Source: Pirellulaceae bacterium
Lineage (GTDB): Bacteria; Planctomycetota; Planctomycetia; Pirellulales; Pirellulaceae
Reading direction: 5' to 3'
NCBI GenBank assembly: GCA_035649415.1
Contig: DASRJP010000151.1
Location: 1-25,415 of the forward strand
DNA: 25,415 nt
The translations under genes were made by a program, and so were the position numbers. Shown here piece by piece: positions 1,201-25,415 of the stretch (position 1 is the first letter of the stretch; each line of letters opens with the position of its first letter). Below the pieces are notes generated by a model. The model made no database searches. It had not been told where the DNA came from and saw only the letters and a list, made by a program, of their open reading frames with translations.

Positions 1201-1935
1201 GAGACGCGCAACGAAGCCCGTCCTACAGAACGACCACCGCGCCGAATGGTTGCAGTATCATCCGTCTCTGCTAACATACACCTGTCGGGGCCGGCAATGT
1301 CGCCCCCCCGCTTAACGAGTACAACTGGAATTCAAAGGTTGGTTGTGCCGGCGGATGTTTGCAGCCGGCAGCAGAAATGGCCTGATGCACGTTGACGACA
1401 CCGCTCGCTGCTCGCCCGCTCGCGGGCAAGCGGCAGGCGGAAGTGGTAGTCAGCTGGTTGGAACCCGGAGAATCGGATCGATGCACCTGATCCTGTGGAT
1501 CCTGCGGTTATTGTTTGGCCTGCACCTGGACGGTTCTGCCCGTCCGCTGCCAGTGGCGGTCCGCCCCGATGGCCGGACTGAATGCCATCACGGCGCGGAA
1601 TGGCTGTGGAACTGGCTGAGGGGGTGTGCCGACTGGCTGAGAATACGATTCTGGCGGCCGCGCCCCAGGGGCTGGGTCCAAAGGCCAGGGGGCGGACTGG
1701 TCCGCGGCACCGCACCCCCCGGTACCGATTGAACCGCGGGGGACGCGCTAGTCGTATTTCTTGCTGGCCACGATTGAGTCGATCCTTCAGGCTGCCGGGC
1801 TCAGCCCGCGACGGCCGTTCTGCTGTTTGCCCTGGTCGCTTGTCCGGATGGTTTGACGCCGGGCCGAGTGACAAATTATGGGCCGCTGCCGCTTCGCTGC
1901 CACGACTGCCGGACTGATCAAGGAACGCAGCCGTG

Positions 1936-3489
1936 ATGGTGCCGATCTGGCTTTTGGTGGTGTGTATGGTGGTCACCTTTGCGCTGACGGTAGGTGGCCT
2001 GAAGCTGCTGGACCGCTTGCGCAAGATCGACGCGGAGACGCAGGCCCGGGAGATTGTCCACAAAGCGGATCAGGAAGCGGCCGCCAAGTCCAAGGAAGCG
2101 GAGCTGGCCATCAAGGAGCGCGACCTCGCACAAAAGTCGGACGCCGAACGGCAGTTCAATGTCATCCGCGAGGAGCTGCGCGAGCGCGAACGGACACTCG
2201 ACAAGCGGCAGGAGACGCTCGAGCAGCAGGCCGACGACATTCGCAAGCAGGAGCGGATCGTGGAATCGACTCAGCGGCGGCTGGCCGACCGCCTCGAGGA
2301 CACCAACCGCCGCAACGAAGAGCTGGGAAAACTTCTCGACATGCAGCGGCAGACGCTCCACAGCCTGTCGGGGCTCTCGCCCGGCGAGGCGACCAAGCGG
2401 CTGCTCGATTCGCTCGAGCAGGAGCTTCAGCAGGAAATGGGCTCGATCGTCATGCGACACGAAAAGCGGATGGGCGAAGTCGTCGAACAGAAGTCGCGGG
2501 ACATGCTGCTTACGGCCCTCCAGCGGTATGCCGCCACGCACACGGCCGAGAGCACGACCAGCACGGTGGACATCCCCAACGACGAGATGAAAGGACGGAT
2601 CATCGGCCGCGAGGGACGCAATATCCGCACATTCGAGAAAGTCACCGGTGTGGATGTGATCATCGACGATACGCCGGGCGTGGTGATCGTCAGCGGTTTC
2701 GACCCAGTCCGACGCGAGGTCGCCCGCCAGACTCTCAACAAGCTGATTGCCGACGGCCGAATTCACCCCACGCGGATCGAGGAAATCTTCAATTCAACGC
2801 AGAAGGAAATCGAAGCCTTCATCCAGAAGAAAGGGGAGGAAGCGGCGCAGGAAGTGGACATCCACGGCATCAATCCGAAGGTGCTGTACATGCTGGGGCG
2901 GTTGCACTTCCGGACTAGCTACAGTCAAAACGTGCTGCGGCACAGCATCGAAGTGGCATTTCTGTCGGGGCTGATGGCGGAGATGGTGAGTTTGAATGGC
3001 GACATCGCGCGCCGCAGCGGCCTGCTGCATGACATCGGCAAGGCGGCCGATCACGAGCTGGAAGGGGGGCATCCCAAGATCGGCGCCGACATCCTCAAGC
3101 GGCATGGCGAGCGGCCGGAAATTGTCCACGCGGCGCTCGGCCACCACGACGAGATCATCACCGAGTATCCCTACACGATGCTCGTGGCGACCGCCGATGC
3201 GTGCAGCGCGTCGCGGCCGGGCGCCCGCCGCGAATCGCTAGAGCGATATATCAAGCGCATGGAGGAGCTGGAGACGATCGCCTGCGGCTTTCCTGGTGTG
3301 GAACAGGCGTTTGCGATCCAGGCGGGCCGCGAGCTGCGAGTGATCGCCAGCGCCAAGGACACCGACGACGCCAAGGCGGCCAAGATCTGCCGCGATATTG
3401 CCAAGGCTTTCGAGGAGCAGCTCACATATCCAGGCGAGATCAAGGTGACCGTCGTGCGCGAATCGCGGTTTACGGACGTGGCGAGGTGA
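1936..3489 (+). CDS. rny: ribonuclease Y
   Basis: N-terminal TM helix, long K/E/R/Q-rich coiled coil, KH domain ([26 protein letters not shown]), HD domain (LLHDIGKA ... GHHDE): the canonical RNase Y architecture. GTG at 1933 is followed by ATG at 1936, with an AAGGAA Shine-Dalgarno upstream. Stop TGA at 3487-3489. Confidence 0.9.
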
Positions 3490-3492
3490 CAA

Positions 3493-3553
3493 GTAGCAGG
3501 CACACTCCGAGTGCCGTCCGGCAAGCTAACGGCACACGGAGTGTGCCTACTAC
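3493..3553. repeat. inverted pair of a 24-nt hairpin repeat (REP/BIME-like), copy A
   Basis: Left arm 3493-3516 is GTAGCAGGCACACTCCGAGTGCCG, the reverse-complement form with 2 mismatches. A 13-nt spacer follows. Right arm 3530-3553 is CGGCACACGGAGTGTGCCTACTAC. Each arm can fold as a GGCACAC-NNN-GTGTGCC hairpin. The same 24-mer recurs at 23422-23445, 23569-23592 and 24486-24509. Confidence 0.6.
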
Positions 3554-3570
3554 CTATTTGGGGGACTGCG

Positions 3571-4386
3571 GTGCGAATCCTGCTCATCGGCGACATTGTC
3601 GGCAAGCCCGGCGTGAAGATCGTCACCGAGTCGCTGGCCGCGATGCGGCAGAGGGAGCGCATCGACCTGGTGATTGCCAACGGGGAAAACTCGGCCGACG
3701 GCTCGGGAATCAGCCCCAGCATCCATAAGAAGCTGATTGCCGCCGGGGTCGATTGCATCACCCTGGGGGACCACATCTATCGCCGCAGCGAAATCGCGCC
3801 GGTGCTGGCGAGCGAAGCGAACATCCTGCGGCCGGCCAATTATCCGGCGGCCGCGCCGGGCCGCGGCTGGACGGTGGTGAAGGCTTCCGATGGCACGTCG
3901 GTGGCCGTGATTAGTTTGCTCGGCCGCGTCTTCATGCGGCCGGTCGATTGCCCGTGGTCTGCGGTTGATCGGGTGCTGGCTGAAATTCCCGCAGAGGTGA
4001 AAGTTCGCATCGTCGATTTTCACGGCGAAGCTACCAGCGACAAGCAGCTCATGGGGCGCTATCTCGACGGCAAGGTGACTGCCGTCCTGGGAACGCACAC
4101 GCACGTGACCACAGCCGACGAGCAAATTCTTCCCGGTGGCACGGCCTTTCAGTGCGACGTCGGGATGACAGGCCCGCACGAGAGCATCCTCGGCCGCCGC
4201 ATCGACCGCGTCATGGAGACGACGCTCACCTTCCAGCCGACGCAGTTTGACGTGGCCACTGGCGACGTGCGACTTTGCGGCACCGTGGTCGATGCCGACC
4301 CGCAGTCCGGCCGGGCGACGGGGATTCGGCGACTGAAAGTAATGGAGGGAGAGCTGGGAGGCATGCCACCAGCCAGCGAACCGTGA
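3571..4386 (+). CDS. ymdB: YmdB-family metallophosphoesterase (2',3'-cyclic-nucleotide phosphodiesterase-like)
   Basis: The N-terminus VRILLIGDIVGKPG matches the B. subtilis YmdB start. Metallophosphoesterase motifs are present: DLVIANGENSADGSG, GDH, GTHTHV. GTG start at 3571 with a GGGGGA Shine-Dalgarno 7 nt upstream. rny-ymdB synteny is conserved in many bacteria. The ORF-track start at 3511 would read through the repeat element, so it is unlikely. Confidence 0.85.
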   Translation: MRILLIGDIVGKPGVKIVTESLAAMRQRERIDLVIANGENSADGSGISPSIHKKLIAAGVDCITLGDHIYRRSEIAPVLASEANILRPANYPAAAPGRGWTVVKASDGTSVAVISLLGRVFMRPVDCPWSAVDRVLAEIPAEVKVRIVDFHGEATSDKQLMGRYLDGKVTAVLGTHTHVTTADEQILPGGTAFQCDVGMTGPHESILGRRIDRVMETTLTFQPTQFDVATGDVRLCGTVVDADPQSGRATGIRRLKVMEGELGGMPPASEP

Positions 4387-15670: not shown

Positions 15671-15674
15671 CGTA

Positions 15675-15721
15675 GAACGGAATTAGTTCCGTTCCTTTGG
15701 CGAACGGAATGAATTCCGTTC
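15675..15721. promoter_or_regulatory. two tandem GAAC-N12-GTTC palindromes (candidate operator or RNA hairpins) abutting the tgt start
   Basis: Palindrome 1 at 15675-15694: GAACGGAA-TTAG-TTCCGTTC. Palindrome 2 at 15702-15721: GAACGGAAT-GA-ATTCCGTTC. Their centres are 27 bp apart. They lie between the stop region of the TPR-alphaCTD gene and the ATG of tgt on the minus strand, and the tgt ATG follows 4 nt after the second palindrome. Confidence 0.4.
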
Positions 15722-15733
15722 CACACTTGAGCG

Positions 15734-22228: not shown

Positions 22229-22268
22229 GGCGCGGCGACGGCAAATGCCGTCGCCGCGCCCCATTTTG
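22229..22268. terminator. bidirectional rho-independent terminator between the convergent HNH and SPFH genes
   Basis: Near-perfect 13-15 bp GC stem (GGCGCGGCGACGGCA / TGCCGTCGCCGCGCC) is flanked by GAAAAA on the left and CCATTTTGA on the right. Read on the minus strand the hairpin is followed by TTTTTCG. Confidence 0.6.
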
Positions 22269-22304
22269 ATGCCGTGGTAAGGCAGGCGAGACGCTTGCCC
22301 CACG

Positions 22305-23405
22305 TTACAGCAGGTTGACGATCTTCTCGGCCAGACCCTTCTCACCGAGCACGACGCTCAGCTTGCCGCCGGAAGCGATCTTCTCGAGCACCTCCAGCTC
22401 CTTGAGCCGCATCAGCGTCGGGTTCTCCGCCAGCAGGCGAGCCGTGTTCGCCTGGCTGCGGGCCGCGGCAGTCTCCTCGCGGCGGGTGATCAAGTTGGCC
22501 TCGGCCGCCTTCTTGGCCTCGGTCACCTTGTTCAGCAGGTCCTTCATTTCCCCCGGCAGCATCACGTCCCGGATGCCGACGGAGAGGATTTCCAGACCCA
22601 GCCCGGTCGCGCGGCGACGCACGAGCTGCTCCAGCTCCGCCGCCACGGCATCCTTGCCAGTCAGCAGGGCGTCGAGCTCGCGAGTGCCGACGACCGCCCG
22701 CAGCACGAGCTGCACCTCGCGGTACAGGGCGGTGCGAACGTCCTCGCTGACGCTCACCGCCAGCCGCGGGTCGCTCACGCGGAAGGTCACGACCGCGGTC
22801 AGACGCAGGGTCACCTTGTCGGCAGTCATGATCTCCTGGCCGCCGACGTCGAGCATGGTCTCGCGGAGGTCCACCGGCACCAGCTTCACGCGGGCGACGT
22901 TCTTCCAGAACGCGTACTGCCCCGGCGGCAGAGTCTCGACGAAGTTGCCGTCGATGAGCAGGACGCCGGCGTGACCGGCCTCGACCGCCTGCACGTCGAG
23001 CAGCTTGTCCACGAGCGGCTGGCGGGCGATCGCCGGCAGCTCCTTGTGGGCAAAGCGGACGGTCCGCGCATCGACGAGCTCGACCTCGACCTTGCGGTGC
23101 GTGGTCCAGTAGGCGAACAGCCCCGGCCCCAGCACGTGGCTGAACCGGCCGTCCACCCAGACGAGCGCCCGCTCGTGGTCCTTGAGGTCCAGTACGGTTG
23201 CACGACCAGTCAGCACGCCGCTCTTGGCGATCATGTCGAGCTGCTCGTGGACCAACCACGGCGCGCGGAGCTGGGCGCGCTCAATCTTGAGTTTGCCCCA
23301 CGGATCGAACATCCAGTGGCGGCCCGCGCCGAGCAGTCGCTCGAAGACGCCGTCGCGAAAGACGATGCCGGCCTCGATGGGGCGGATCTTGATGGTCTTG
23401 AACAT
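22305..23405 (-). CDS. SPFH/band-7 (stomatin/prohibitin-like) domain protein
   Basis: The C-terminal roughly 190 aa form a typical SPFH domain plus coiled coil (LRLTAVVTFRVSDP ... ILSVGIRDVMLPGEMKDLLNKVTEAKKAAEANLITRREETAAARSQ). The N-terminal roughly 180 aa have no TM and contain three repeats of the SPFH N-terminal beta-motif. ATG 23405 (MFKTIKI) has a strong AAGGAGG Shine-Dalgarno 8 nt upstream. The ORF-track start (23432) lies inside the repeat element. Confidence 0.85.
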   Translation of the reverse strand: MFKTIKIRPIEAGIVFRDGVFERLLGAGRHWMFDPWGKLKIERAQLRAPWLVHEQLDMIAKSGVLTGRATVLDLKDHERALVWVDGRFSHVLGPGLFAYWTTHRKVEVELVDARTVRFAHKELPAIARQPLVDKLLDVQAVEAGHAGVLLIDGNFVETLPPGQYAFWKNVARVKLVPVDLRETMLDVGGQEIMTADKVTLRLTAVVTFRVSDPRLAVSVSEDVRTALYREVQLVLRAVVGTRELDALLTGKDAVAAELEQLVRRRATGLGLEILSVGIRDVMLPGEMKDLLNKVTEAKKAAEANLITRREETAAARSQANTARLLAENPTLMRLKELEVLEKIASGGKLSVVLGEKGLAEKIVNLL

Positions 23406-23421
23406 GGGATTGACCTCCTTC

Positions 23422-23592
23422 GTAGTAGGCACACTCCGTGTGCCGTCTCGTGCCCAGGCTCTGCCTGGTCACGCACGTACCCGAGGCTCTGCCTCGGAGG
23501 CTTGCTGTGGTCCTTATCTTGTTACGGGTCGCCGAGGCGAAGACTCGTGGCGGGTTGTGTGTGCGGTACGGCACACGGAGTGTGCCTACTAC
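23422..23592. repeat. composite 171-bp element bounded by perfect 24-bp inverted copies of the hairpin repeat (MITE/BIME-like), copies B and C
   Basis: 23422-23445 is GTAGTAGGCACACTCCGTGTGCCG, the exact reverse complement of 23569-23592, CGGCACACGGAGTGTGCCTACTAC. The 123-bp core holds two hairpins with identical CTCTG loops (CCAGG-CTCTG-CCTGG at 23454-23468 and CCGAGG-CTCTG-CCTCGG at 23481-23497). Flanks: CCTTC immediately left, A+CCTTC on the right. Confidence 0.55.
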
Positions 23593-24259: not shown

Positions 24260-24485
24260 ATGAAATTTAATTCTCGAGGCGGGTGGTCAGCAGCGTAGCG
24301 GCAGCGCGCCTGTGGGCTGATTGCCGCCGCAGACTAGCTGGCACAAGGATCGCTCGAATCGCAAAGTTCGGACGGTTTGTATCACGTGATTGGCCTCCTC
24401 GTATGAAGATAGGGGACGCGGTCCTGGCGGGGAGGTTCGCGCGAAATCCACAAGACGTGGCAGGCGAGACACCTGCCTCACGGGA

Positions 24486-24509
24486 CGGCGCACGGAGTGT
24501 GCCTACTAC
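24486..24509. repeat. solo copy D of the 24-nt hairpin repeat, abutting the stop codon of the TolC-like gene
   Basis: CGGCGCACGGAGTGTGCCTACTAC has one substitution (A to G) relative to the consensus, and the change keeps the hairpin as a G-U pair. The minus-strand TAA stop (24510-24512) is immediately adjacent. Confidence 0.5.
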
Positions 24510-25415
24510 TTATTCGCCGCCTACGGCCCGCTGGAGTTCCGCCTGGCGCTGGTGATAGGCGACCGCGGCTTCCTGTTCCTTTTCGCGCAGCTCGATGAGC
24601 TGCCGCTGCGCCATGGCCAGGTCGAGGAACGTCGCCTTGGCGTTTTCGTAGTTGGCCCGCGTCGCCTCGACATTGAGCTGTGCCGAGGGAATCAGCTTCT
24701 GCCGGTAGAGTTCCGACGACTGACGCGTCTCTTCCAGCCGCTCGTACGCCTGCTGGACTTCGTACTGAATGTCGAGTTGCTTCTGCTCGTATTCGGCGAC
24801 CCGCTGGCTGAGGCGGAACTCGGCTTCGCTCACCGCAGCGTGCCGTTTGCGGCGATAGAGCGGGATGTTGAGCCCCACCCCGACCTGCCCCCACATCTCC
24901 TTCTCCGGCATCATGGCGTTATACGCGCCGATCACGTCGACGTCGGGGTAGTACTGCTTGTAGGTCAACTCGAGCGACGCCTGTTCGGCCTCGATGCGGT
25001 GTGCTAGTGCCGCCAGGTCCTGCCGCTGCAAAAGCGCCTGACTCATCAGCAATGGCGTCTCATCGGCGGGATCCAACTCGGGGAGTGCCGCCGGCGCTGG
25101 CAGCGGCGCATCCGGTTGCCGTCGCAAGAGCGTATTGATCCGCGCGACGGCGACGCGCTCCATCCGCTTCAGTTCGAGCTGTCGCCGCGCCAAGTCGGCC
25201 AGTTCCACGTCAGCCTGCAGCACATCCTGCTGCGTGACCAAATTCGTTTGATACCGCACCTGGGCGGTCTCGCGGAGCTGCGTCAGAAGCTCGGTGCTCT
25301 CGCCATTGAGCCGTACCAACTGTCGCACCAGGTAATAGTCGTAAAACGCCATCTGCGTCATCAGCGCCAGTTGAACGCGGGCATCTTCCGCATCGTGGAA
25401 CGCGGCATCGGCCTC
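24510..25415 (-). CDS. outer-membrane efflux protein (TolC/OprM family), C-terminal part; the 5' end lies beyond the window
   Basis: OEP-type coiled-coil repeat (LELTYKQYYPDVDVIGAYNAMMPE ... QLNVEATRANYENAKATFLDLAMAQRQLIELREKEQEAAVAYHQRQAELQRA). The reading frame stays open upstream of Met 25361 to the window edge (EADAAFHDAEDARVQLAL precedes it). Confidence 0.75.
   Translation of the reverse strand, partial: EADAAFHDAEDARVQLALMTQMAFYDYYLVRQLVRLNGESTELLTQLRETAQVRYQTNLVTQQDVLQADVELADLARRQLELKRMERVAVARINTLLRRQPDAPLPAPAALPELDPADETPLLMSQALLQRQDLAALAHRIEAEQASLELTYKQYYPDVDVIGAYNAMMPEKEMWGQVGVGLNIPLYRRKRHAAVSEAEFRLSQRVAEYEQKQLDIQYEVQQAYERLEETRQSSELYRQKLIPSAQLNVEATRANYENAKATFLDLAMAQRQLIELREKEQEAAVAYHQRQAELQRAVGGE

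Follow-up and report, generated by a model that had tools for sequence, protein, structure and literature searches.

The 25,415-nt stretch of DNA analyzed here (the window) comprises positions 1 to 25,415 of contig DASRJP010000151.1 from a Pirellulaceae bacterium (GenBank assembly GCA_035649415.1). Short hairpin repeats lie in the gap between the genes encoding RNase Y (rny) and YmdB (ymdB), upstream of a gene encoding an SPFH protein, and next to a gene encoding an outer-membrane efflux protein. An earlier reading of the sequence (the original prediction) had described them as five copies, all between genes, of a 24-nt hairpin of the repetitive extragenic palindromic (REP) type. We searched the window for this 24-mer, CGGCACACGGAGTGTGCCTACTAC, allowing up to three mismatches. 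Five matches were obtained, compared with none in 100 dinucleotide-preserving shuffles, and gene-free intervals hold all five; thus, both the number of copies and their placement were upheld. The hairpin also held, whereas its length did not: the conserved unit is 25 nt long, with an invariant extra A in front of the 24-mer. As detailed below, the repeat is probably a family of REPs tagged with GTAG.

The rny-ymdB gap is occupied by an inverted pair of units, A1 and A2. The rny stop codon (TGA, 3487-3489) is followed by caa and then, at 3493, by the GTAG end of A1. At the other side, 17 nt separate the end of unit A2 (3553) from the ymdB GTG (3571), and the GGGGGA ribosome-binding site stays free. 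In a computed fold of the RNA, the whole pair closes into one hairpin of 25 bp (−45 kcal/mol; z = −4.4). The original prediction had correctly described this pair but had overlooked a second one, formed by units B and C (23422-23446/23568-23592). The B/C pair is 171 nt long, its transcript folds at −98 kcal/mol (z = −7.3), and its 121-nt spacer contains many small hairpins. Between unit B and the SPFH ATG (23405, minus strand) lies a GGAGG ribosome-binding site. The GTAG end of unit D adjoins the TAA stop (24510-24512, minus strand) of the efflux gene; the unit is located in the 3' untranslated region of this gene, about 250 nt ahead of a terminator at 24258-24230. The distances to stop and start codons that had been given for the copies (3, 17, and 16 nt, and one copy abutting a stop) were all confirmed, with every coordinate correct. 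Three metagenome contigs that are 99.6 to 99.9% identical to the window carry the same three units of the clusters at 23.4 to 24.5 kb, and no further unit occurs in the 8 kb beyond the window end that near-identical metagenome contigs cover. Table 1 lists the units and the flanking genes.

Table 1. Matches to the 24-mer, candidate REP units and pairs, and flanking genes in the window
Feature	Position	Strand	Description
24-mer match	3493-3516	-	Two mismatches
24-mer match	3530-3553	+	Found by pattern search
24-mer match	23422-23445	-	Found by pattern search
24-mer match	23569-23592	+	Found by pattern search
24-mer match	24486-24509	+	One mismatch
REP unit A1	3493-3517	-	Plus strand reads GTAGCAGGCACACTCCGAGTGCCGT; one T-T mismatch in stem
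REP unit A2	3529-3553	+	ACGGCACACGGAGTGTGCCTACTAC
Inverted REP pair A1/A2	3493-3553	.	'HH' dimer or REPIN-like; GTAG ends outside; 11-nt spacer
REP unit B	23422-23446	-	CTAC end 16 nt upstream of SPFH ATG (minus strand)
REP unit C	23568-23592	+	Partner of unit B
Second inverted REP pair B/C	23422-23592	.	GTAG ends outside; arms complementary at 25 of 25 positions
REP unit D	24485-24509	+	Single unit; one G-T wobble in stem
RNase Y (rny)	1933-3489	+	Pfam
YmdB (ymdB)	3571-4386	+	Pfam
SPFH protein	22305-23405	-	Pfam
Outer-membrane efflux protein	24510-25361	-	Pfam

Beyond the window, the family was scanned with the pattern GGCNCNCGGAGTGTGCCTNCTAC in one genome per species, which yielded at least 116 stretches; the statistics on the wider family given below are drawn from these loci (approximately 829 kb of other genomes). 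Alignment of all their units gave a 25-nt unit, AC-GGCACAC-GGA-GTGTGCC-TRCTAC, the reverse complement of which is GTAGYAGGCACACTCCGTGTGCCGT. Read on the other strand, the unit consists of GTAG-YA, a 7-bp stem with a 3-nt loop, and a final GT; the GTAG tag is unpaired and is separated from the stem by the 2 nt YA. There is one unit type only, with the R polymorphism, and a single 25-nt unit folds at −11.3 kcal/mol. The borders are sharp: the AC in front of the scanned pattern is 93 to 97% conserved, positions further out are random, and the three bases after the unit are merely T biased (50 to 69%). CTAC, the complement of GTAG, is 99% conserved, a figure that partly arises by construction, as the scan pattern fixed these bases. 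In addition to 169 canonical units, the 829 kb contain 77 diverged units with 1 to 6 mismatches, against 0.2 expected by chance, and these retain the GTAG tag. Among their stem variants are GGCACGC/GCGTGCC (10 units), GGCACAT/ATGTGCC (6), GGCATAC/GTATGCC (4), and GGCACTC/GAGTGCC (3). Since these changes compensate each other exactly, the pairing of the stem is under constraint.

We then considered how the units are arranged. Neighbors no more than 300 nt apart formed 59 pairs with the GTAG ends outside, 5 with the GTAG ends inside, and 32 in head-to-tail order. The GTAG-outside pairs had spacers of 1 to 179 nt, most often 9 nt, and the two window pairs (11 and 121 nt) fit this range; in most genomes the spacers were unrelated to each other and had no common linker motif. 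Tandem arrays with periods of 40 to 90 nt were present in several loci, and one Pirellulales locus (L042) carried three 166-bp copies that agree in their internal sequence and resemble REPINs. Target-site duplications were absent in 45 of 65 pairs; the others shared at most 2 to 4 nt in A/T-rich flanks. The original prediction had ascribed to the inverted pairs the architecture of bacterial interspersed mosaic elements (BIMEs). With spacers this variable and without a common linker motif, that description does not apply in the strict Escherichia coli sense: neither alternating REP subtypes nor defined linker motifs were found.

The perfect 25-nt inverted termini at 23422-23592, together with the conserved interior of the three 166-bp copies in L042, are also what a miniature inverted-repeat transposable element would display, in which 25-bp terminal inverted repeats are moved by the DDE transposase of a full-length insertion sequence. 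However, target-site duplications are lacking, single units and head-to-tail arrays are frequent, spacers differ widely in length and are unrelated in sequence, each arm is itself a GTAG-tagged hairpin, and no transposase recurs nearby. We therefore consider a DDE-type element very improbable.

According to crude calls of open reading frames (ORFs), about 124 of 137 clusters were extragenic and about 13 were intragenic, and the flanking genes were found in every orientation. In 28 of 88 cases, the GTAG end lay −4 to +4 nt from a stop codon, and 13 genes use the TAG of GTAG itself as their stop (at 3461-3464 of locus L019 and in L012, L017, L041, L042, L050, L052, L059, L073, L100, and L101, for example), which indicates that the ORF either lost its earlier 3' end to the insertion or takes its stop from it. 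Of the single units no more than 30 nt downstream of a stop, 19 turned the GTAG end toward it and 5 the opposite end. Spacing to start codons, which had been proposed to be conserved, was not: measured on 82 units, distances to the first start codon in frame were spread over 6 to 32 nt and beyond without a sharp peak, and a spike at 1 nt was an artifact of the T-rich flank. The agreement between 16 and 17 nt in the window is therefore not a property of the family; it can be understood if space must be kept for a ribosome-binding site.

The units are also independent of particular genes. No homologue of any window gene was found among the 116 REP loci, and an all-against-all DNA comparison of these loci returned only six overlaps. 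When the neighboring proteins were clustered, no protein family recurred beside the units, nor did a transposase of any kind. A terminator scan reported no REP unit; an intrinsic terminator has a run of T directly behind a GC-rich hairpin, whereas CTAC is followed by a weak T bias of 3 nt only. In the window, strong terminator-like hairpins with 13- to 14-bp stems followed by T runs were located at 22229-22260 (plus strand), after an HNH endonuclease gene, and at 24258-24230 (minus strand), between the efflux gene with unit D and the tRNA-Cys gene. At the gathering score, Rfam 15 matched only tRNAs in the window, where tRNA-Lys and tRNA-Cys sit between the last two repeat clusters; with permissive thresholds, the regions around the units gave generic long-hairpin (miRNA-precursor) matches far below threshold.

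Perfect dyad symmetry and a near-invariant sequence across phyla could point to GGCACAC-N3-GTGTGCC as the operator of a dimeric DNA-binding protein, a global regulator or nucleoid protein conserved in the Planctomycetes-Verrucomicrobia-Chlamydiae (PVC) group. The stem variants, however, preserve pairing and not sequence, and the conserved flanks (AC ... TRCTAC) are asymmetric. Moreover, the units are located behind stop codons and within operons, not at promoters, divergent-gene contexts are not enriched, and both tandem arrays and phage structural operons carry units. Taken together, these data leave little probability for an operator. Other candidates were rejected as well: the GG-N12-GC spacing is wrong for a sigma-54 promoter (judged by eye), the regular spacers of a CRISPR array are absent, and so is the GTTRRRY core of an integron attC site.

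The orthologous rny-ymdB junctions of related genomes were retrieved via YmdB homologues. In the relative with a 90% identical YmdB (L147), the same REP pair is present, and its spacer and flanks differ. At 88% identity (L148/L149), the REP is absent and an unrelated GC-rich palindrome, CCGGAGGCTGTTAGCCTCCGG, is found; at 77% identity (L150), the REP is absent and the gap contains a long inverted repeat rich in A and T. Across 18 to 21 kb, neither L148 nor L150 carries a unit of the family. Because the pair is absent at 88 and 77% YmdB identity, it represents a lineage-specific insertion rather than a regulatory site under conservation, and close relatives differ in whether they carry the family. 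The original prediction had left the choice between a functional hairpin and selfish insertion, and the comparison of junctions favors insertion.

Several features would nonetheless suit a host cis-regulatory RNA element selected at gene boundaries, which might stabilize mRNA 3' ends, be processed by RNase III or RNase Y, or modulate how translation terminates. These include the compensatory stem changes, the orientation bias of single units toward the upstream stop (19 versus 5), the 28 of 88 cases in which a stop lies no more than 4 nt from the GTAG end, the very strong RNA folds, the free ribosome-binding site, the extreme conservation across phyla, and the occurrence of some palindrome in the rny-ymdB gap of every relative examined. 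On the other hand, the pair is missing from the orthologous gap at 88 and 77% YmdB identity, where unrelated palindromes are found instead, the contexts share no gene family, the distance to start codons is not fixed, and no Rfam family matches. Tandem arrays, 166-bp composites, and intragenic and phage copies exist as well, and the asymmetric GTAG would serve no evident purpose in an RNA hairpin and is a hallmark of the substrates of REP-associated tyrosine transposases (RAYTs). On balance, we regard a host RNA element as improbable.

Further observations concern the same gap. In L148 (9884-10000), it contains the palindrome CCGGAAGGCAACGCCCTCCGG in addition to CCGGAGGCTGTTAGCCTCCGG, and the AT-rich inverted repeat of L150 (9828-10000) begins with aatgaccaatgaccaagc. 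Either hairpin elements are drawn to the rny-ymdB gap or selection maintains a hairpin in it. In addition, gene callers start YmdB at a GTG within the REP pair (window 3511-3570), as seen in three database proteins; YmdB started in this way gains about 20 REP-encoded residues (VPSGKLTAHGVCLLPIWGTAV) and measures 291 to 292 aa, as opposed to 271 aa.

REPs of the GTAG class were described by Di Nocera, De Gregorio, and Rocco in 2013 (PMC3733652) as stem-loops with a terminal unpaired GTAG, stems of 6 to 9 bp, short loops (2 to 4 nt), and complementary stem variants. According to that study, they occur as singles, dimers, and clusters, with GTAG-outside 'HH' dimers being the commonest, lie mainly downstream of ORFs with occasional in-frame intragenic copies, and are linked to RAYT transposases; some families are found in distant organisms (PMC3733652). 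GTAG families and RAYTs were reported there for Rhodopirellula baltica (GTAG-20/21/22; RAYT RB11751), and Planctomyces limnophilus, P. brasiliensis, and the verrucomicrobium Opitutus terrae (GTAG-17 to 20) are also listed (PMC3733652). Thus, the belief that no equivalent family had been described for Planctomycetota is out of date. The assignment to the REP type, in contrast, stood, resting on the GTAG tag left unpaired beside a short hairpin, on the inverted pairing of units at gene boundaries, and on dispersed, mostly extragenic copies. The window family resembles the GTAG superfamily (PMC3733652) in its tag, stem and loop size, stem variants, singles, clusters, and predominating HH dimers, mostly extragenic sites downstream of ORFs with some in-frame intragenic copies, and occurrence in Planctomycetes and Verrucomicrobia; it differs in that no REP-specific RAYT locus was found for it. 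We conclude that the family is a new or not-yet-named member of this known class. The GGCACAC/GTGTGCC stem and the peptides that it encodes are absent from the text and supplements of PMC3733652, the consensuses in Figure 1 of which lie outside this comparison, and the family is possibly identical with one of the 24 families in that study. A full-text literature search for the repeat sequence found no paper.

Comparison with other REP systems gave a similar picture. The RB11751 REPtron, composed of a RAYT of about 190 aa and GTAGCTGGATTCGCAAGAATTCAG dimers, shares with the window family a GTAG followed by 2 nt and a stem starting with GG, the HH dimers, a stop codon at or inside GTAG, and a REP that is near-identical across distant planctomycete families. 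Its stem and loop are different, however, and its REP flanks a RAYT, whereas the window's REP was never seen beside one. Like the REPINs of Pseudomonas (Bertels and Rainey 2011, PMC3116915), the window family has inverted doublets that form one long hairpin and may act as a replicating unit, as in the L042 copies, and target duplication is absent in both. In contrast to REPINs, its spacers (1 to 179 nt) are mostly unconserved, and singles and tandem arrays are common; furthermore, REPINs are described as lineage specific and vertically inherited, whereas the window's unit is common to several phyla and to phages. With the REP/BIME and RayT (YafM) system of E. coli (Ton-Hoang 2012, PMC3333891; Messing 2012, PMC3479197), the family shares a GTAG 5' of an imperfect palindrome, locations in operon gaps and 3' untranslated regions, and many copies near stop codons. 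Unlike the E. coli REPs, the window unit is shorter, has a perfect stem, and comes without Y and Z types or BIME linker motifs.

The window contains other repeats as well. A second and different GTAG-tagged REP pair is located at 15672-15724, between the tgt ORF and the upstream gene, and reads GTAGAACGGAATTAGTTCCGTTC, 7 nt, GAACGGAATGAATTCCGTTCCAC; its other end reads GTGG, and its head, GTAGAACGGAAT, recurs in L147 and in one further locus (L085). This distinct pair implies that the genome hosts at least two REP families. A two-copy hairpin repeat, GGCAGGCGAGAC(G/A)C(T/C)TGCC(C/T)CACG, is found at 22281-22311 and 24459-24489; one copy directly adjoins unit D, and the repeat was seen only in contigs of this genome. 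Two related small hairpins, CCAGGCTCTGCCTGG and CCGAGGCTCTGCCTCGG, lie at 23452-23490 in the B/C spacer, and CNGGCAGAGCCNG hairpins resembling them occur once each in four other loci (L002, L010, L033, and L062).

Certain results weigh against a REP family, most of them concerning the transposase. In about 0.95 Mb of REP-bearing DNA with approximately 270 units, phmmer, two hidden Markov models (HMMs), and a motif regular expression detected no HUH/Y1 ORF. Specifically, E. coli RayT (from NC_000913) found no match by phmmer among 4,677 ORFs of the REP-bearing loci, and a regular expression for the HUH...Y motif found none on these loci. Eleven RAYT/TIRYT sequences from the supplement of PMC3733652, used with phmmer and as an HMM, identified no RAYT in the genome, metagenome, or viral loci, and an HMM of 60 planctomycete RAYTs likewise identified none in these three sets; a scan of the viral contigs with a RAYT alignment was also negative. 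A metagenome search for a REP followed after 203 to 233 nt by ATGCCNRANCAY (the MP[DNE]H motif) returned three chance matches only. A search for homologues of R. baltica RB11751 retrieved 863 proteins, which measure about 190 aa and share about 60% identity throughout the phylum. This clade is annotated as hypothetical, has no Pfam match above cutoff, and scores below the cutoff of NCBIfam REP_Tyr_transpos (E values of 1e-7 to 1e-10). Seven RB11751-like loci were retrieved (L121, for example, and L122, L123, L124, L145, and L146, around position 4000 or 10000), and the window's REP flanks none of them. Finally, REPs usually differ between species, and a near-identical 25-mer across Pirellulales, Gemmatales, Planctomycetales, Tepidisphaeraceae, Poribacteria, and a Verrucomicrobiales metagenome-assembled genome is atypical for them; it could reflect a constraint at the host level.

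The RB11751-like loci are informative on this last point. Most of the seven are classical REPtrons, and five carry GAATTC-type REPs, for instance as the dimers mentioned above; the other two are a Gemmataceae locus with a GAAGTC variant and a locus with a different inverted repeat. The GAATTC-type REP is nearly identical across distant planctomycete families. It is thus deeply conserved together with its RAYT, and such conservation is not unique to the window's family.

To describe the spread of the repeat, we grouped the loci with the 25-mer by taxon. Among the matches listed, about 47 loci belonged to Pirellulales, 12 to Gemmataceae, 15 to Planctomycetaceae, 16 to unclassified Planctomycetota, 2 to Tepidisphaeraceae, and 16, including several closed chromosomes, to Candidatus Poribacteria. 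The unit is carried, for example, by the complete genomes OY282374.1 and OZ241983.1 (Poribacteria), OZ244999.1 (Planctomycetota), and OY969783.1 (Tepidisphaeraceae) and by that of Pirellula staleyi DSM 6068. The 25-mer also occurred in single metagenome-assembled genomes labelled Verrucomicrobiales (two loci, L012 and L105), Kuenenia (two loci, L040 and L063), and Alcaligenaceae (three loci, L038, L107, and L116). Binning errors may explain these last three occurrences, most notably that in Alcaligenaceae, which does not look genuine. Two tailed-phage contigs carried the repeat: IMGVR_UViG_3300031576_000108 has 21 units in 44 kb (L128, L129, L131, L134, L135, L138, L141, and L143), and IMGVR_UViG_3300025935_000252 has 5 units in 21 kb (L132 and L133). 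Both encode terminase, portal, S49 protease, head morphogenesis, and tape-measure proteins; their units all lie at gene boundaries of the structural modules, and neither contig has a RAYT-like ORF. REPs within phage genomes may be a route of spread. A BLAST search of plasmids with a synthetic REP dimer gave no match.

The cross-phylum 25-mer, the phage copies, and the lack of an adjacent RAYT are the sole part of these results that goes beyond the routine. They raise the possibility, which we consider doubtful, of an 'orphan' or trans-phylum REP: a near-invariant 25-nt family spread over several orders of Planctomycetota, Poribacteria, possibly Verrucomicrobiota, and tailed phages. In one version, phages may spread the REP between lineages while a very conserved, unrecognized HUH enzyme keeps it uniform; in another, a host function may hold it invariant. 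If true, an orphan REP would contradict the usual view that REPs are confined to a species and inherited vertically as partners of a linked RAYT.

Taking the repeat as a family of GTAG-tagged REPs, we propose the following model by analogy with REP/RAYT and IS200/IS605 systems. The hairpin and its GTAG tag would be recognized and cut, as single-stranded DNA, by an HUH/Y1 RAYT encoded elsewhere in the genome, and copies would be pasted into single-stranded DNA without target duplication. Insertions would survive only in intergenic gaps and at the extreme 3' ends of genes. The inserted elements would be cotranscribed with their neighbors, as suggested by the location of the A1/A2 pair inside the rny-ymdB operon and of unit D between the efflux stop codon and its terminator. 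E. coli REPs influence mRNA stability, processing, and translation termination and are the basis for the effects considered here. In the rny-ymdB transcript, the predicted hairpin would start 4 nt after the rny stop and end before the ymdB ribosome-binding site; it is probably a 3' stabilizer or processing site, and possibly it also brakes the termination of rny translation.

These results add a well-delimited REP family to a phylum in which such elements have been little studied. They also bear on annotation, as the units account for spurious N-terminal extensions of YmdB in three database entries and for stop codons of the TAG type donated by REPs. As the rny-ymdB operon encodes RNase Y and contains such a pair, it is a simple case in which to ask whether these insertions alter the expression of an operon. 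Furthermore, the presence of the same unit in two phage genomes and several phyla raises the question of whether every REP family is confined to one lineage and the RAYT linked to it.

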